This document shows, in pieces, positions 45,491 to 55,352 of a stretch of DNA of 64,000 nucleotides. A program made the position numbers and the translations under genes. Within the stretch, counting starts at the first letter, position 1, and each line of letters opens with the position of its first letter. The stretch lies in contig CAZFVQ010000015.1 in NCBI GenBank assembly GCA_964522415.1, forward strand, positions 12,601 to 76,600. Reading direction: 5' to 3'. The notes beneath the pieces are model-generated. The model was not told the DNA's origin. It was given only the letters and a program-made list of their open reading frames with translations, and searched no databases. Source of the DNA: an uncultured Rikenellaceae bacterium (GTDB lineage: Bacteria; Bacteroidota; Bacteroidia; Bacteroidales; VadinHA17).

Positions 45491-45615
45491 TATTTTTCGA
45501 AATGGCTGTTGGTTTTTTTATAACAATTGGTTAATATTGCAGTCCGTTTTCTGTATGCCGGTAGCTGAACGGATTAAGGCTGTACACAGCCCGTTCACCC
45601 GAAGTATAAATAACC

Positions 45616-45675
45616 GGGCCCATAGCTCAGACGGTTAGAGCATCCCGACCACAGGTCGGGAGGGTCGTTGGTTCA
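45616..45675 (+). pseudogene. Truncated tRNA copy (pseudo-tRNA)
   Basis: The first 27 nt (GGGCCCATAGCTCAGACGGTTAGAGCA) and GGGTCGTTGGTTC are identical to the tRNA-Met 78 nt downstream. The anticodon arm differs (CCCGA-CCACAGG-TCGGG). The 3' half of the T arm and the acceptor strand are missing. Confidence 0.6.
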
Positions 45676-45693
45676 TTAACATATTTATTTCCG

Positions 45694-45767
45694 GGGCCCA
45701 TAGCTCAGACGGTTAGAGCACCTGACTCATAATCAGGGGGTCGTTGGTTCGATCCCAACTGGGCCCA
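45694..45767 (+). tRNA. tRNA with CAT anticodon (elongator Met, or Ile2 if lysidinylated)
   Basis: 74-nt cloverleaf: GGGCCCA-TA-GCTC..GAGC-A-CCTGA-CTCATAA-TCAGG-GGGTC-GTTGG-TTCGATC-CCAAC-TGGGCCC-A. It is not initiator-like, because it has a G1:C72 pair and no GGG/CCC anticodon stem. Confidence 0.9.
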
Positions 45768-45773
45768 CATTAA

Positions 45774-49300: not shown

Positions 49301-49422
49301 AAATTGAAGAGACTGGGACCAACAGGATTAATGTCAATGGTCTTATCACCGGAATATATGTTTTACTCGTTAATGAAAATGGCAAAGACAGCAGCATTAA
49401 ACTCTTTATATCAGGGAAATAA
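46330..49422 (+). CDS. BspA-type leucine-rich-repeat (DUF285) surface protein with SprB-like N-terminal repeats and a T9SS C-terminal sorting domain
   Basis: Signal peptide. Repeated modules end in V(R/T/K)D.CG. DUF285 repeats read NTASVTNMSYMFAGATSFNRDIGSWNTSSVNDMSGMF. The C-terminus VAVLYDLRGNAIW...GIYVLLVNENGKDSSIKLFI is typical of the T9SS type A tail. Confidence 0.85.
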   Translation: MKSVFALLLLVSTITLHAQNPVCYVYHGCGGATVAAYPGDPEWTNITYEFQRFFEGNWVTIHQTIENYHLVIPGDISVATQYRARLRNNVTLQEIISNSVIVDPARYNDAVVKPEPKLTFYWGTIATSGSNYVDVQPIASPFLTSMRPPFTFTIKKKDGPVFDQKLSTNVVRFDRNIEANQEYVVTVKDYCNQVDSVTGNIAFVPRGRIVERSCSGASMEVYSVFVGENFDGRLPLTFGLAPLHDTILSTAVPQSIIDGISYNYSEGIITGLTEKRYVLNAKDRFGVLSRYSVISTGIDYPVAVWRGYGSYGGFCEYYITLMGDYPEHGVRLAGTNDPYIFTPGLTVNNLRLGKTYEIVVRDSCGRLSKPTIQFFPAVDPVITSAEIYEEDCKTKLTVNAQTCSDNPEYLLKISQGNPGVWQSSNLFVYESITGCDTVFVRDGDNVIFQEVCTGTLQADAFIYPVSDICGSPYELIVDTDNGSPPYTFEISSDGINFSDPADDGFFTQLPPGIYTVRVTDACGQSVVIIPEDGIAGGLFEVTESGFIGECGASGGYLHINIDSGSDFPVNHPPYKYSVREIITGSGYNISYGSVITSGETTDTDFFIYDLPGSKRYGVFITNDCDDPFTLKDRAFNDFVISGCDQFISVWNLAIPGGADTEITFNVATGGTVAYTWETIPAAYSGSGTFIGPSATIGNLPAGATIRLNIQPENLKRFFIDGGIDRNRLTLVENWGSTAWTSMELAFNGCANLQITAVDVPDLSGVTSMELMFQYCIALDSPENINTWNTASVTNMSYMFAGATSFNRDIGSWNTSSVNDMSGMFREAYAFDRDIGTWNTAAVTSMSNMFAWASGFNRNIGSWTLNPGVMLEYMFDGSGMSCISYSATLAGWYANPSTPLNRVLGATGMQYGTYAETARAYLTGIMGWTIEGDSFVNESCEGLMTGITDTNSGELKKITAWMERDEIVINGITEKAVAVLYDLRGNAIWIRKIEETGTNRINVNGLITGIYVLLVNENGKDSSIKLFISGK

Positions 49423-49722
49423 ATCATCGGCTCCATTTAGTACAAACTTATCATACAGGGTCTGTGCTGTGTACTTAAATATATGGCCGCGGATAGGGAA
49501 TAAATCAGTTTGAGTTACAAGATCATTTGCTCCCTGCGGTTCTATTGCCGTTTCCTTGATAGCGATGCGTTTAGCGACCTTCTTACCGACGATTTTCCAA
49601 CAAATGAAATCATGCGTTTTTATCACCTGTCTGCCAACGATCTGGAGTCATATAGATCGGGGGAAACGCACGACAACAGTATAATGCAAATTTTAAAATG
49701 ATAAAACCTTAAAAGTTATAAC

Positions 49723-49755
49723 TTTCTTTTGCAGCCGGTCTGGTAACAAGATTTC
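49723..49755 (+). repeat. Left copy of the imperfect direct repeat flanking the three-gene cassette
   Basis: TTTCTTTTGCAGCCGGTCTGGTAACAAGATTTC aligns with 51668-51703 with 3 mismatches and a 2-nt indel. Weaker similarity (TGATTC..AATCTTT) continues about 50 bp further. Confidence 0.65.
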
Positions 49756-49845
49756 GAACTTATTTAAGAACATTTTGTAAAAGAATGATTCTTGAATCTT
49801 TTTCTTAATTTGCATATCTTTATGCTTTGCATTTAAACTGAAAAG

Positions 49846-50577
49846 ATGAGCAAATTACCAAATGCTCCCTTATTAGAGGTAATTTTCGAATTAAGATGGA
49901 AGATTACCAATAAAAACGATTTAAGCAGATGTCAATATTTACATGGAGATCTTTACTCCAGGTTAAGTGAAAAATATCCAATAAGGGAGTCGTTAACCCC
50001 AATTGAATTACCATCAGAACTGCTAATCAATAATCCAGCTCATAGATTCAGAACAAATAAGGGAGGTTATCCTTTGTTTCAAGTGGGTCCTGGAATAATT
50101 ACATTAAATACCATTGACGATACCTACGCTTGGTCTGAATACTTTGAATTAATTAAAGAATTAATTCACAACTTTTTCAAGGTATATCCATTGATCGAAC
50201 ATGAAAAATTTACTCCTAATCTGAGATATGTAGATTTTTTCAAAATAGATCCGGAAAAAGAAAACCTGATTGAATTCGTCAGAAATTCGTTGAACACAAG
50301 TATCGAACAACGATTCTATAGTGAACCTGATTTTCCCTCTGTAATTACTTTGAACTTTGCCTACCCTACAAAGCTTGGGCAATTTATTTTTAATCTTAAT
50401 AATGGGAATAATCAACGAGCTGAAAAAGGACTAATCCTACAGACTGGAGTAAAGGGTATGGAATTCACTCCTAATACTGAAGAATTATTTACTTGGATTA
50501 ATGAATCGCATGAATTTTGTAGCGATATATTTAAAAAGCTAACTGCAGGCTCTTTATATGAATCTTTTAAATCATAA
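49846..50577 (+). CDS. TIGR04255-like protein (sporadically distributed family, function unknown)
   Basis: The N-terminal signature LPNAPLLEVIFELRWKI and the mid-protein LRYVDFFKI match my recollection of TIGR04255. AT-rich codon usage. Confidence 0.7.
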   Translation: MSKLPNAPLLEVIFELRWKITNKNDLSRCQYLHGDLYSRLSEKYPIRESLTPIELPSELLINNPAHRFRTNKGGYPLFQVGPGIITLNTIDDTYAWSEYFELIKELIHNFFKVYPLIEHEKFTPNLRYVDFFKIDPEKENLIEFVRNSLNTSIEQRFYSEPDFPSVITLNFAYPTKLGQFIFNLNNGNNQRAEKGLILQTGVKGMEFTPNTEELFTWINESHEFCSDIFKKLTAGSLYESFKS

Positions 50578-50578
50578 T

Positions 50579-50920
50579 ATGATCTCCTTCCCGTTCATAT
50601 TCTTACCTTGCTATTTGGAAACTGCCACCACAGTTGAAGCGACAAAAGAGGTATGGAATGATTATTATATTGAAATGTTTGAACCCAGACGATTTCTTAA
50701 CTATTCGGAAATGGAAGGATTAAAAACCATTAAGAATAATAAACTGACTACTGTTACATTTGATTCTGATGTTAAAAACACAAATACATCAGGGGAAGTC
50801 TATCAGGATTCTCTTTCGGGTAATTATGACATCCATATTCCAATAATCATCAACAAGTCCTTTCATTTCAAGGGAAAAGTCAAATCCATCTCAAGATATA
50901 AAATATCCATCAATATTTAA
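50579..50920 (+). CDS. Orphan small protein (113-120 aa)
   Basis: The ATG at 50579 is 1 nt after the upstream stop; the alternative ATG at 50558 overlaps the upstream gene by 20 nt. Hydrophobic N-terminus ISFPFIFLPCYL. I recognise no family. Confidence 0.55.
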   Translation: MISFPFIFLPCYLETATTVEATKEVWNDYYIEMFEPRRFLNYSEMEGLKTIKNNKLTTVTFDSDVKNTNTSGEVYQDSLSGNYDIHIPIIINKSFHFKGKVKSISRYKISINI

Positions 50921-50928
50921 TCTCAATC

Positions 50929-51456
50929 ATGGATTACCCTTGGTACACTATTTTAAAAAATAATGAAGAAATTCAGCAGGGTGATTTAATACCTGATTGC
51001 CCAATAATAATCCCACCTCCCAAAATAGAAGCTGATAAAGAACTTGATATTAAAGTTGAATTGATGGATGCAATTGTTCTTTCTCAAACCTGTGATCTCA
51101 TCCATGGGAAAGTAGATATTGTTTTAATGTGCCCTCTTTATTTGAAAAGTTTTGTTGAATCATTAAAGGATAAGAAAGCTATTAGAGAGGTAGTAGAAAA
51201 TCTTCGTAAGGGTTTCTTGTATAGTTACCATCTACTTAATAACTCAGATGTTATAGAAGATTTGAAAGACTACCAAGTAGTAGACTTTAAAAATGTTTAT
51301 GGGGTTAAATTCGATTTATTAAAGGGATTAATACAGGAAAGGGAATCAAGATATAGATTATTACCCCCATATCGAGAACATCTATCTCAAGCATTTGCCA
51401 GATATTTTATGAGAGTGGGCCTTCCTCAGGACATAAAAATAGAAGGATATTATTAA
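50929..51456 (+). CDS. Orphan protein (175 aa), unknown function
   Basis: Starts 8 nt after the previous stop. Notable motifs are QGDLIPDCPIII, AIVLSQTCDL, VLMCPLY and the C-terminal LLPPYREHLSQAFARYFMRVGLPQD. Confidence 0.65.
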   Translation: MDYPWYTILKNNEEIQQGDLIPDCPIIIPPPKIEADKELDIKVELMDAIVLSQTCDLIHGKVDIVLMCPLYLKSFVESLKDKKAIREVVENLRKGFLYSYHLLNNSDVIEDLKDYQVVDFKNVYGVKFDLLKGLIQERESRYRLLPPYREHLSQAFARYFMRVGLPQDIKIEGYY

Positions 51457-51667
51457 TTGTTTCAGATTAAATCATAAAATCTATACTTTATCCGAATCCT
51501 GTAACAGATCCCTCCCATTATTAGTCCTCTCATACTGAGCTTTCATCTATTGAGTTATGTTCTCGTTGTTTCCAAATTTATGTTACATTTTTTCATGCCT
51601 CCTTTTGAAGTGGTCAAAATCGGACTGCTATAAGGTATAATCAGACACTATCAAGACCAATTGGAGA

Positions 51668-51703
51668 TTTCTTTTTTGCTGCCGGCCTGGTAACACGATT
51701 TTC
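51668..51703 (+). repeat. Right copy of the imperfect direct repeat flanking the three-gene cassette
   Basis: TTTCTTTTTTGCTGCCGGCCTGGTAACACGATTTTC; see 49723-49755. Confidence 0.65.
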
Positions 51704-51959
51704 AAAAATCCACTCAACGGAATACTTTGATTCATCCAAATCTTTCATACAGATTATTTTTAAACAAACAGAATGAATATCCCGAAATATCAGTTTAACC
51801 TGATTAATTCATAAACCCCTTATTCAGTATAAAGATACACTTTTTGCTCTGATCCCTTTCCGGTTACTGACTGATTCATCCTCACGGGAGTTACTCCGGA
51901 TGAGATCCGGGCAAGCTGCAAGAAAATTCCCGGGATTGATCATTTCAGAAAAAAAAGAA

Positions 51960-51967
51960 TATATTTG
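51960..51967 (+). promoter_or_regulatory. -7 promoter box TATATTTG
   Basis: Exact TAnnTTTG match 9 nt before the P1 helix of the riboswitch. Confidence 0.45.
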
Positions 51968-51975
51968 CTCTGCGA

Positions 51976-52180
51976 TTACAGGTTCCCGGATCAGTCAGAT
52001 ACTGACCCGGGCGAAGAGGGAATCCTGTGAAAAACAGGAGCTGTACCCGCAGCTGTAAGTCCTGCAAGCGTTCCGGCAAACCCTGCCACTGTTAAACTCC
52101 AGGTGAGATGGGAAGGCAGCCGGAACAGGACAAGCCAGAAGACCTGCCTGTAACATGCTTCGTAGCTTTCGGGTGAAAGG
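51976..52180 (+). promoter_or_regulatory. Cobalamin (B12) riboswitch
   Basis: The P1 helix pairs TTACAGG (51976-82) with CCTGTAA (52147-53). The core reads AGAGGGAATCCTGTGAAAAACAGGAGCTGTACCCGCAGCTGTAAG, followed by GCCACTG, GGGAAGGC and the B12 box AGCCAGAAGACCTGCC. A 3' hairpin, GCTTTC-GGGT-GAAAG, follows. Confidence 0.85.
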
Positions 52181-52311
52181 CAAAGAATGAAATCTTAAAT
52201 GTTTCCATCTCCGCCTTTTTGTTATTTCTGCGAAGGATCCTGCATGTAAACTGCATCGTCATTTAATGATGCAGCTGTCGCAATGTTTACACAACGAGCA
52301 ACTTGACAGAA

Positions 52312-54225
52312 ATGGGAACAAAAACATTGCTATTTATCAGATCAGCCTTGTTGACAATATTGTCAATAATTTATGGGTCGGCAGTTTTTGCACAATCCAT
52401 TGCCGACACCATAATTCAAATCCCTGATGTGGTAATAAAAGCTTCCCGGTTTCAACAGTTCAGAAATGATATTAAAACAGATGAATTCACTTCTGAAGAG
52501 CTGAGTCCTTATTCAGGGGAATCACTCGGCCGTTTCCTGATAAGCAAAACGGCTCTGAATGTCAAAGGTTATGGAGTTGGCGGTGCATTGAGCAATATTT
52601 CCCTGCGGGGTACCTCAACAAGTCATGTCCAGGTTAACTGGAACGGCTTTCCCATCAATTCAGTCACCCTGGGCTCATCAGACTTTTCATTTATCCCTGT
52701 TGCCGGATTCGATAATATATCTGTTGTGTACGGAGCTCCGGGGGCTCTTTACGGAAGCGGTACATTTGGCGGAGCTGTCAATCTGGATAATAACCTGAAA
52801 ACGGTGAGTGCGCTGAAAGGATCAGTAAGTATAAGTTATGAATCCCTCGAAACCATCAACGGCAGCATGTCATTTACTATCGGAAACAACAGGCTGGCAT
52901 GGAAAACCAATGCATGGGGAACACTTTCCGGTAATAAGTTTAGCTACTATGATTATATCCTGCAGAACGACAGAAAGCAAACAGACGGCCAGTGGCATAA
53001 TACAGGTACTATTCAGCAGTTTATATTCCGTCTTTCACCGTCATCAACCATTGAAGCAGGATTATGGTATCAGGTAAAGGCCTTTAATATTCCATCACGG
53101 ATAGGATCGGTATCTTATGAACATCAGAGGGATTCAACCCTGAAATTCTTTACAGCCTGGAAAAAATCGGGCAGCCACTGGGGTATGGAAGCAAAAACAG
53201 CAATTTTCAGGGATTACCAGCGCTATACCCAGAAAGCATCTGAACAGGCGGCATCATATAGTATAGACTCAAGGATCAGGTCAAATCAATACTATGGAGA
53301 TGTGAATTTCAGATATCATCCGGGTCAGCATATTTCGATCGATGCAGGACTGATTGCCACTTTTATCAATGCGGATGTGTCAGCCTACGGGAAGAGAAAA
53401 GAGGAAAGAGGGCTGACAGCTTTTACAGGAATAAAATATGATACAGACCGCTTTTCATGTCAGGCAGGATTAAGAAAAGAGTGGAATTCCAATTTCAGTT
53501 CCGGTGTATTGTCCTCATTCGGAATGACAAGGCAAATGAAAGATGAGAGGTGGAAACTGAGAGTCAATATTTCACAGAAATTCCGTAAGCCCACATTTAA
53601 TGATCTTTTCTGGATGCCCGGAGGGAACCCTGACTTAAAGCCCGAAACAGGGTATTCGCTTGAAGCCGGTTCTTCCGTGACGATCCTTGAAAAAGAAAAA
53701 GCCACGCTGTCAGCCGATGCAGGAATCTACTGGTCAAAAATAAATAATATGATCGTGTGGCGGCCTGCCGGGATCTACTGGACCGCCATGAATCACCAGA
53801 GAGTATATTCTGCCGGAATGGACGGCAAACTGATTCTGGAGGTGACACACAGAAAACTAAAATACCGCTCGGCACTTAATTTAATGCTGAACAAGTCTGA
53901 TGTACAATCCTATGTTCCGGGAGAACATGAAAAAATGCTGTATTCCCCCCGTATAATCACTTCATGGGAAAACAGCCTGTCGGCAGGAATATTTGATTTT
54001 GTTGTTGATCATCATTTTACAGCAGACCGATTTTACGATGACAGTTCATTGCTGAAGCCTTACCAGGTTCTTGATATGAAAAGCGGAGTGAAGATTCCTG
54101 TCGGGAACGGACATCTGGGTATTCATCTGACTGTTAATAATCTGACAAACACCACTTATGAACTTATCAGGCTATACCCGGTGCCGGGTCGTTACTGGTC
54201 AGTCAGAATAAACTATTCCTTTTAA
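52312..54225 (+). CDS. btuB: TonB-dependent outer-membrane receptor, BtuB-type (downstream of the B12 riboswitch)
   Basis: Plug region DVVIKASR...ISLRGTSTSHVQVNWNGFPIN. C-terminal YWSVRINYSF. The ATG at 52312 is preferred over the TTG at 52303. Confidence 0.85.
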   Translation: MGTKTLLFIRSALLTILSIIYGSAVFAQSIADTIIQIPDVVIKASRFQQFRNDIKTDEFTSEELSPYSGESLGRFLISKTALNVKGYGVGGALSNISLRGTSTSHVQVNWNGFPINSVTLGSSDFSFIPVAGFDNISVVYGAPGALYGSGTFGGAVNLDNNLKTVSALKGSVSISYESLETINGSMSFTIGNNRLAWKTNAWGTLSGNKFSYYDYILQNDRKQTDGQWHNTGTIQQFIFRLSPSSTIEAGLWYQVKAFNIPSRIGSVSYEHQRDSTLKFFTAWKKSGSHWGMEAKTAIFRDYQRYTQKASEQAASYSIDSRIRSNQYYGDVNFRYHPGQHISIDAGLIATFINADVSAYGKRKEERGLTAFTGIKYDTDRFSCQAGLRKEWNSNFSSGVLSSFGMTRQMKDERWKLRVNISQKFRKPTFNDLFWMPGGNPDLKPETGYSLEAGSSVTILEKEKATLSADAGIYWSKINNMIVWRPAGIYWTAMNHQRVYSAGMDGKLILEVTHRKLKYRSALNLMLNKSDVQSYVPGEHEKMLYSPRIITSWENSLSAGIFDFVVDHHFTADRFYDDSSLLKPYQVLDMKSGVKIPVGNGHLGIHLTVNNLTNTTYELIRLYPVPGRYWSVRINYSF

Positions 54226-54257: not shown

Positions 54258-55352
54258 ATGAAAAAATTCAGATTGAAAACCCTGTTTCCTGCCTTTACTG
54301 CCATGTTTCCCGCATTTGCCCTGATTACAGTGCTCCTGCTGGTCTCATCATGTGAAAAGATCGAGGATGAACCGCCTTTGACAATCAATAACCTGAAAGG
54401 TATGTTTGTTGTGTGTGAAGGAGTTTATGGCCAGGCAAACGGTGATATCAGCTTTTATGATTCAAAGACCGGTCAGACGACAAAAAATCTTTACTACTCA
54501 GTGAATGGAGTGGAACCCGGCGATGTTGTGCAATCATTTGAAATAGCAGACACCCTCGGATTTATTGTTGTAAACAATTCACAGAAGGTTACAGTGGTAA
54601 ATATGAAGAATTTCAAAGTGGTCAAACATATTACCGGCTTTTCCTATCCCCGCAGTGTTGTCCGTGCCGATGAGAACACGGTATATGTATCGAACGGAAA
54701 CGGATCATCAGATAATTTTATTTACAAAATTAACCTGTCGACCCTGGAGATAAGCGGATCCCTCCCGCTAAGCACAGGACCGGAAAAACTGATCAGAGTG
54801 AATTCAAAAGTATATGCAGCAATTTCAGGCGGATGGGATAATGACGGCAACACGGTGATCGGAATCGATCCCCTGACCTTCTCGGTTACCGACACTTATA
54901 ATGTGGCTTCAGTTCCCGTTGACATAGTAGCCGACAAGAACAATAATATATGGGCATATTGCAAAGGTGTTGCTGATTACACAAACTGGCCGGATGTAAG
55001 CTATAATGATGCCGGGATAAGCAGGATCAACATATCTGACAATACGGTGAGCTCATTCCCGATTAGCAGTATGAGCTCTTCCGGAATCAATAATATAGCG
55101 GCAGGAAAAGATGGCAGCACGATTTATTATCTTAACGATGCTCTTTATCCCATGCCGGTAACTGCAACCGCATTACCGGAAAGCAAACTTGCCGATCAGG
55201 GATTTTACGGTCTGGATGTGGATCCGGAGACCGGTAATATCGTCTGTCTGGATGCAGTCAATTCCAAAGCTGTTATTTATAATACAGCAGGGGTGAAACA
55301 ATTTGAATTTGAAACGGCAAAATTTCCCTGTTCAGTGGTTTTCAGCTATTAA
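54258..55352 (+). CDS. Beta-propeller surface lipoprotein (YncE/DUF5074-like), possible BtuG-type B12-capture protein
   Basis: Lipobox LVSSC, repeated propeller-blade-like segments, and a position immediately downstream of btuB. Confidence 0.55.
   Translation: MKKFRLKTLFPAFTAMFPAFALITVLLLVSSCEKIEDEPPLTINNLKGMFVVCEGVYGQANGDISFYDSKTGQTTKNLYYSVNGVEPGDVVQSFEIADTLGFIVVNNSQKVTVVNMKNFKVVKHITGFSYPRSVVRADENTVYVSNGNGSSDNFIYKINLSTLEISGSLPLSTGPEKLIRVNSKVYAAISGGWDNDGNTVIGIDPLTFSVTDTYNVASVPVDIVADKNNNIWAYCKGVADYTNWPDVSYNDAGISRINISDNTVSSFPISSMSSSGINNIAAGKDGSTIYYLNDALYPMPVTATALPESKLADQGFYGLDVDPETGNIVCLDAVNSKAVIYNTAGVKQFEFETAKFPCSVVFSY

Follow-up and report, generated by a model that had tools for sequence, protein, structure and literature searches.

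What is the role of three small, closely packed genes in the genome of an uncultured Rikenellaceae bacterium? The question is raised by positions 49723-51703 of a 64,000-nucleotide (nt) stretch of contig CAZFVQ010000015.1 (this whole stretch is called the window from now on). A first inspection, made from the letters alone and referred to below as the sequence-only reading, had described there an AT-rich cassette of a TIGR04255-like gene and two orphan genes, bracketed by direct repeats, and had proposed it as a candidate conflict or defence module. The three proteins, all encoded on the forward strand, are denoted here as p1 (49846-50577, 243 amino acids, aa), p2 (50558-50920, 120 aa, or 50579-50920, 113 aa, depending on the initiation codon) and p3 (50929-51456, 175 aa). 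The annotations of Pfam, NCBIfam, PADLOC 2.0 and PHROGs assign no function to any of them, and TIGR04255, the family of p1, is itself functionless. The reading that we favour, and to which we give about an even chance, is that these genes form a tripartite conflict operon of a toxin-antitoxin-like kind, self-contained and spread by horizontal transfer, in which p3 would be the effector (the toxin), p2 its neutraliser or adaptor, and p1 an accessory sensor, regulator or stabiliser. It builds on gene order and tight coupling, on the co-occurrence of the genes, on purifying selection, on mobility between unrelated contexts and on the resemblance of p3 to known toxins in predicted fold.

The tight same-strand packing described by the sequence-only reading was borne out: the first ATG of p2 overlaps p1 by 20 nt, the second lies 1 nt after the p1 stop, and 8 nt separate p2 from p3. 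The p2 ortholog of a related cassette (L087) starts at the position of the second window ATG, which corresponds to the 113-aa form. To place the genes in a wider frame, p3 was scanned for in one genome per GTDB species, which returned 250 loci, 80 of which were kept. In type II toxin-antitoxin (TA) systems a small gene invariably neighbours the toxin gene in one operon, and p3 has such a neighbour in 78/78 loci with any upstream DNA: a small open reading frame (ORF) always ends within approximately 30 nt of the p3 start, and p3 is never alone. The median gaps are 5 nt between p1 and p2 and 3 nt between p2 and p3. Architectures were counted in the 71 loci with at least 1.3 kb of DNA upstream of p3, TIGR04255 being sought within 1.6 kb upstream. 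Recognisable p1, p2 and p3 were present in 41 of these loci, p2 and p3 only in 14, and p1 and p3 with an unrecognised small middle ORF in 7; in the other 9 only p3 was recognised by profiles, although a small ORF still abuts it and an ORF of about 240 aa often precedes. The co-occurrence with TIGR04255 that the sequence-only reading had wished to see examined therefore exists: a member lies upstream in 48/71 loci by profile (41 of them with a recognised p2), plus locus L077 by NCBIfam, i.e., in about 70%. These counts identify the p2-p3 pair as the core and TIGR04255 as a frequent third component, the pair occurring without p1 in Methanotrichaceae and others. Among close copies, the ratio of nonsynonymous to synonymous substitution rates (dN/dS) is 0.04-0.16 for p1, 0.15-0.19 for p2 and 0.10-0.16 for p3. 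The three genes thus make up a conserved operon under purifying selection (dN/dS 0.04-0.19), and its distribution is very wide and patchy across bacterial phyla and archaea.

The second line of evidence concerns mobility, and here the earlier idea of a mobile cassette held. The cassette moves as a unit, as copies with 82-93% nt identity are found in four unrelated contexts (the window, L081/L082, L087 and L109), and it also enters phage genomes. The copy in L081-L086 is 91.6% identical over window positions 49734-51612 and adjoins either AbiEii and an SNF2 helicase or an IS66 transposase; that in L087 is 82% identical over 49775-51500 and follows a sugar-utilisation operon; that in L109 is 93% identical over 49702-51666. 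The travelling DNA exceeds the three genes on both sides. A 5' leader (49756-49845, forward strand), presumed to be the promoter region, is 82-93% identical in L109, L081 and L087 despite their differing upstream DNA; a scan for sigma-70 sites is uninformative for Bacteroidota. At the other end, a non-coding 3' tail (51457-51666, forward strand) moves with the cassette, homology ending at 51612 in L081-L086 and at 51666 in L109.

The sequence-only reading had also placed the cassette in a tRNA-linked region. In the window itself this needs qualification: the nearest tRNA, a tRNA-Met at 45694-45768, lies 3.9 kb upstream, and a gene for a 1030-aa cargo protein of the type IX secretion system (T9SS) stands between. 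The link is clear only for close relatives in other contigs. In L109, a 43-nt sequence (1791-1833) is identical to the 3' part of the window tRNA-Met, and the cassette begins 45 nt later; it is a fragment, since no tRNA is predicted in L109 by ARAGORN. The same 3' fragment is present in L081 and L082 (3531-3577 in each), 230 nt upstream of the cassette, and overall the distance between fragment and cassette is 45-270 nt. These fragments run from the anticodon loop to the acceptor end, and L081 and L082 diverge from each other exactly inside theirs, as expected of the att core of an integrative element targeting tRNA-Met. Pairs of the motif GGTGCCAGTTT(T)GGTGCCA flank the fragment (1656-1674 and 1879-1896 in L109, 3399-3417 and 3803-3820 in L082) and may be arm-type sites of an integrase.

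More distant cassettes are found between the phage genes terS and terL, their p3 being about 40% identical to that of the window. The IMG/VR contig L101 has the same gene order between these two genes (p3 E 2.8e-56), its first and middle genes not being recognised by profiles. In another, L103, the cassette has an antirepressor and a head gene of Mu-F-like type as neighbours. The positions in L101 and L103 are like those of morons. In L105, TIGR04255 is followed by a 115-aa gene and by one for a 209-aa protein distantly similar to p3, which bears the motif ILSNTCDI. A distant TIGR04255 gene is also present on the Pantoea sp. Lij88 plasmid NZ_CP118267.1 (L108, 4992-6840), between prophage lysis genes and terS, accompanied by 189-aa and 149-aa hypothetical genes. 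These two were considered as relatives of p3 and ruled out, being unrelated to it, which suggests that TIGR04255 may pair with different partners.

The description of p2 and p3 as orphans did not survive. An exhaustive profile search gathered 2102 clusters of p3 relatives (50% identity), of which 1154 reach E <= 1e-10, and 3925 homologs were counted among 90%-identity clusters; p3 has no match in Pfam (E <= 1), NCBIfam or PADLOC 2.0. Nearly all members are stand-alone proteins of 165-215 aa, and the family is present in Bacteroidota, Chloroflexota, Planctomycetota, Desulfobacterota, Lachnospiraceae and Methanothrix. The 80 loci kept from the genome scan represent these bacterial groups together with Acidobacteriota, and archaea of the Methanotrichaceae/Methanosarcinales. 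Invariant or nearly so are Q17-G18-D19, C24-P25, S52-Q53-x-C55-D56-L57, Y100-H101 and D119-F120, with QGD and LSQxCDL as the most visible motifs, and the C-terminal helix LLPPYREHLSQAFARYFMRVGLPQD, which is highly basic, is invariant. Indeed, the C-terminal 26 residues do not vary from Bacteroidota to Methanothrix (window 51337-51452, residues ~137-175), and BLASTN identity of the 3' end of the gene reaches 80-89% across phyla. The possibility that an RNA or DNA element is embedded there was excluded: synonymous sites in this block are saturated and as variable as elsewhere (entropy ratio 0.95 vs 0.98), so that the conservation is purely at the protein level. Such a constraint is unusually strong for a mobile gene.

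The suggested comparison of folds by Foldseek gave a weak resemblance of p3 to the MazF/Kid/CcdB/ToxN superfamily, whose fold is an SH3-like barrel. Its AlphaFold2 (AF2) model (mean predicted local distance difference test, pLDDT, 77; predicted template-modelling score, pTM, 0.73) retrieved from the PDB a set of toxins: 19 of the top 20 matches were MazF-type or Kid toxins, including those of S. aureus, B. subtilis (YdcE), E. coli, M. tuberculosis and K. pneumoniae as well as Kid itself, and the remaining one was the type III toxin CptN. Within these 20, the Foldseek probability was 0.72-1.0 and E ranged from 5e-3 to 0.2, while the template-modelling (TM) score was 0.36-0.43 for the query and 0.43-0.63 for the target. 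The LSQxCD motif, placed after the central strand, aligns by inspection with the V(L/I)(S/Q)(N/P)D of MazF.

The middle protein has no match in Pfam, NCBIfam or PADLOC 2.0, and a search with the single sequence found only 9 homologs. A profile built by synteny, from ORFs in the same position, recognised the middle ORF in 61/78 loci, the alignment being restricted to the C-terminus. There, approximately 35 lysine-rich residues are conserved (D-x4-K-x-P-x-K-x-F-K-x-K-V-K-I-K-S-I-x-K-x-x-P-K; in the window, D-I-x-I-P-I-I-I-N-K-S-F-H-F-K-G-K-V-K-S-I-S-R-Y-K), while the remainder is highly variable. p2 is, therefore, a fast-evolving family. Positive selection was not seen among close copies, dN/dS being at most 0.31, the value for the N-terminal part compared with L087. 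The longest middle ORF has a median of 115 aa in loci with p1 and of 96 aa in loci without it (Mann-Whitney p = 9e-5), a comparison in which 8 of the 13 p1-less loci are related archaea. From this shortening, the two ends of p2 seem to have separate tasks, the N-terminal part serving p1 and the C-terminal part p3.

As for p1, the family membership proposed from the letters was confirmed end to end: the protein scores 91.4 bits against TIGR04255 in NCBIfam (E 8e-26, residues 3-242 on positions 1-252 of the 252-position profile), the curated cutoff being 30 bits, and it has no Pfam or PADLOC 2.0 match (E <= 1). Its AF2 model (pLDDT 91) contains two S1-H1-S2-S5-H2 repeats, a predicted two-lobed architecture of the TATA-binding protein (TBP)-like or helix-grip type. 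Residues E11, E15, D35, R47, Q79, T86, N88, T89 and D130 are invariant and polar. In the literature searched, no paper mentions TIGR04255, a family with no assigned function. As a side observation, the first genes of about 240 aa in the Lachnospiraceae-type loci L061, L063, L067 and L074, as well as a 373-aa ORF in the Chloroflexia metagenome-assembled genome (MAG) L034, are not TIGR04255 by NCBIfam, and hhalign against TIGR04255, run for L034, L061 and L063 only, gave nothing. The L034 ORF (367-1488) lies directly upstream of p3 and is matched at its C-terminal end by the p2 profile (E 3e-8), so p2 may be fused there to a domain like that of a first gene, though one not recognisable as TIGR04255. 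In two Acidobacteriota MAGs (L071, 3118-5433, and L072, 2-643), TIGR04255 is replaced by a ClpA/ClpB-like AAA+ gene placed before a 156-aa ORF and p3, which could be a coincidence or an alternative partner.

In the mechanism that we propose, p3 would be the effector, with a MazF/Kid/ToxN-type fold to which extra helices and the highly basic, invariant C-terminal helix have been added, and it would probably act on RNA or on another nucleic-acid-bound target, though the MazF active-site residues appear to be missing from it. Its obligate partner p2 would bind and neutralise it through the conserved C-terminal segment, whereas the variable N-terminal extension of p2 would connect to p1. The latter would be an accessory subunit, one that most lineages have joined to the core of p2 and p3, that senses a trigger or controls the stability of p2, in a role analogous to that of a toxin-antitoxin-chaperone (TAC) chaperone or of an abortive-infection sensor. 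Riding on integrative elements and phages, the module would act in addiction or in phage defence by abortive infection. In this scheme we infer that p3 is toxic and how neutraliser and target are assigned, as well as the trigger and any phenotype in defence.

Known systems share some of these traits. As in the type II TA systems MazEF, Kid-Kis and CcdAB, a small upstream gene is translationally coupled to that of a protein with a predicted MazF/Kid-like fold, and the two form an obligate pair on mobile DNA with a patchy distribution. However, p3 has no sequence relation to PF02452, does not, by eye, conserve the MazF catalytic residues and has some 60 extra aa, helical inserts and its invariant C-terminal helix; p2 has no DNA-binding domain of the AbrB or ribbon-helix-helix (RHH) type; and a third gene, TIGR04255, is usually present. 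Three-gene operons are also formed by the TAC systems (HigBA-SecB-like), whose antitoxins carry a chaperone-addiction segment. The extension of p2 resembles that segment, and this antitoxin-like protein has it only alongside the third gene. In contrast with TAC, the extension is N-terminal rather than C-terminal, p1 is not SecB-like by sequence or by fold (it is TBP-like, with two repeats), and the gene order differs. The type III systems ToxIN and CptIN have toxins of similar size (~170-190 aa) and of a MazF-related fold such as is predicted for p3, CptN being among the p3 matches, but the DNA upstream of p3 encodes a protein under purifying selection. A type III arrangement with an RNA antitoxin was excluded, as Tandem Repeats Finder (TRF) detects no tandem repeat in 49400-52000. 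Lastly, in type II Gabija, made of the helicase GajB and of GajC, a split MazF-like protein interrupted by helices acts as the defence effector (PMC13069673). The likeness lies in a MazF-like domain with helical interruptions used as effector (PMC13069673); the cassette differs in having no helicase partner, other partners instead, and no demonstrated sequence relation. The full-length membership of p1 in TIGR04255 adds to these comparisons, the recurrent p2-p3 genomic partner of that family being an addition of the present analysis.

Several results weigh against the toxin-antitoxin-like proposal. The fold resemblance of p3 is modest (Foldseek E ~5e-3, TM 0.4 on the query, pLDDT 77); hhalign gave a probability of 0.2% to the p3 alignment against B. 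subtilis MazF, the p3 profile found no MazF and nothing else among PDB sequences, and Pfam gave no match at E <= 1 to the MazF/PemK family PF02452. MazF endoribonucleases are recognised by an Arg before the central strand and a Thr or Ser after the next one (R29 and T52 in E. coli). By eye, these positions appear not to be conserved in p3, which shows (I/M)D(S/A) and C-P where R and T would be expected and has instead invariant C24, Q53, C55, D56, H101, D119 and H151. Such Cys, Asp and His residues, together with the Arg residues of the C-terminal helix, may constitute a different active or binding site. In p2, no DNA-binding antitoxin domain is recognisable. Neither did p1 find an informative structural homolog in the PDB and BFVD comparisons: in the PDB, Foldseek gave only weak matches (TBP, Bet v1/START and TplEi, TM < 0.3) and the p1 profile retrieved nothing among its sequences, and in BFVD the matches were weak again, to unnamed phage proteins and to the large subunits of giant-virus early transcription factors (VETF-L). 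Searches of 50,697 phage and 72,556 plasmid records gave no match to p3, and 2.9 million IMG/VR contigs yielded only 3. The defence-island neighbourhood that might have been expected from the sequence-only reading was not seen either, since the 240 neighbour ORFs of the 80 loci are mostly housekeeping genes, with only a few restriction-modification genes, 3 integrases, 2 PIN proteins and no family occurring more than 5 times. Single cases of a defence-gene neighbour exist, such as AbiEii in L081. In its behaviour the cassette is more a selfish module, scattered and standing alone, than a resident of defence islands. The suggested check against known defence systems gave nothing, as PADLOC-DB 2.0.0 contains no match at E <= 1 for p1, p2 or p3.

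These points leave room for other explanations. The apparent absence of the MazF catalytic residues would be accounted for if p3 were a thiol-dependent enzyme, such as a Cys-His-Asp protease or a transferase, and p2 its substrate or pro-peptide, from which a basic C-terminal peptide is released or modified. C55 is invariant within SQxCD and is predicted to start a helix, two adjacent strands bear the invariant H101 and D119, and p2 combines a variable body with a conserved lysine-rich C-terminal segment. However, the p3 fold matches with probability above 0.5 are nearly all MazF, Kid or CptN, with no protease fold among them, the predicted 'Cys helix' has only 4 residues, and C24 and C68 are conserved as well, which could mean a structural metal or disulfide site. 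We consider this explanation quite unlikely. The roles could also be reversed, p1 being the effector and p2 and p3 its regulators or immunity proteins. This would suit the many invariant polar residues of p1 and the Pantoea prophage, where a distant TIGR04255 accompanied by two unrelated small partners could be the constant, active part. Against it, p2 and p3 dispense with p1 in at least 14/71 loci while p3 is never found without its upstream small gene, conservation is much stronger in the p3 family than in p1, and it is p3 that has the predicted toxin-like fold; we give the reversal very little weight. Equally slight is the probability that we assign to an ordinary, non-conflict cellular function (e.g., in RNA processing or regulation) encoded by an operon that is often transferred. 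Its mostly housekeeping neighbours, the lack of PADLOC matches and a p3 conservation unusually strong for a toxin are what such an operon would show, but not its patchy presence across distant phyla and archaea, the near-identical copies in unrelated loci, the insertion between terS and terL, the att-like junctions, the nearby AbiEii and IS66 genes, or the foreign base composition in the window.

A further alternative concerns only the repeats at the ends of the cassette. The imperfect direct repeats described by the sequence-only reading are real: the left copy spans 49723-49755 (gapless core 49727-49754) and the right copy 51668-51703 (core 51674-51701), both on the forward strand. Their cores agree at 25/28 positions and reach 33-36 nt with a T-rich extension and a 2-nt indel, the similarity beyond the core being weak. 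They are the sole two copies in the 64 kb at <= 3 mismatches, and none appeared in 100 shuffles. They could be attL/attR-type recombination sites, or a duplicated target, that mark the way by which the cassette came into this chromosome, and the cassette would then be an excisable mini-element. Their similarity, far beyond chance, is not the only point in favour of this view. The left copy belongs to the travelling DNA of the cassette, homology starting at 49702 in L109 and at 49734 in L081, and the right copy is just outside the DNA common to other cassette copies, starting 1-2 nt past the end of the L109 homology (51666). At the left-repeat position, L109, L081 and L082 have the variant GGTGCCAGTTTGGTGCCA(A/G)GATT. 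The left repeat of the window is a diverged local version of the GGTGCCA-type motif, the GGTGCCAGTTT(T)GGTGCCA that flanks the tRNA-Met-derived core on both sides in L109 and L082. In addition, strain variation begins 60 nt after the right copy: L090 (11436-15093) and L094 (6052-9709), otherwise 99.97-99.98% identical to the window, diverge from it at 51764, where they have a region absent from the window, with an AraC regulator, a 371-aa protein, a carboxylesterase and a DUF5916 gene. However, no integrase or transposase was found in or adjoining the cassette within the window. The repeat is not a hallmark of the cassette, as had been supposed: L081 and L087 have no flanking repeat, and the L109 DNA past the right end of the cassette bears no resemblance to it. 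Both copies occur in L090, L091, L093, L094, L098 and L099, contigs that match the window at 99.6-100% identity, and the right copy was found only in such contigs. The empty site with a single repeat anticipated by the sequence-only reading was sought in contigs carrying the flanking 1030-aa or DUF5074 genes and was not found, the 10/10 same-organism contigs that cover the site all carrying cassette sequence, and the 25-nt repeat motif is absent from the JGI metagenome contigs. The repeat is real, and the junction that it marks may be prone to recombination, but it does not define the cassette, and we hold an excisable mini-element to be unlikely.

Taking again the toxin-antitoxin-like operon as the preferred reading, a broader proposal can be made tentatively, as a possibility more doubtful than the operon itself: that TIGR04255, p2 and p3 form a three-part system for immunity or abortive infection, widespread in Bacteria and Archaea but previously unrecognised. 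As its effector, p3 would stand for a new clade within the MazF/ToxN fold, with a chemistry of its own (the invariant Cys, Asp and His residues and the arginine-rich helix), and the TBP-like TIGR04255 would be a new trigger sensor that also pairs with other effectors in prophages. If true, this would provide the first biological role for TIGR04255, a family annotated in many genomes, and a role for a very large family of unannotated proteins of ~178 aa whose C-terminal motif is among the most invariant in mobile genes. The MazF-fold toxins would also gain a three-part architecture and perhaps a novel activity. With its three genes in 1.6 kb, the cassette is a compact candidate that can be cloned directly.

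In the window, the cassette is located between the T9SS cargo gene and a cobalamin riboswitch. As the sequence-only reading had noted, nowhere in the 64 kb is the AT content higher: the 1-kb windows at 50-51 kb and 51-52 kb have GC contents of 0.322 and 0.344, the lowest of all, followed by 0.375-0.377, with typical values of 0.40-0.50. Rfam recognises no RNA family inside the cassette, only the downstream riboswitch (RF00174, 51963-52165, forward strand, 104.7 bits, E 1.8e-26), which precedes a TonB-dependent receptor gene (52303-54225) and a DUF5074 gene (54258-55352) in what looks like a B12-uptake operon. On the other side, directly upstream of the tRNA-Met, there is a truncated tRNA-like sequence (GGGCCCATAGCTCAGACGGTTAGAGCA...GTCGTTGGTTCA, 45615-45680, forward strand), not called by ARAGORN, that has its 5' part and the start of its T-arm in common with the adjacent tRNA-Met and may be a recombination scar at this locus.

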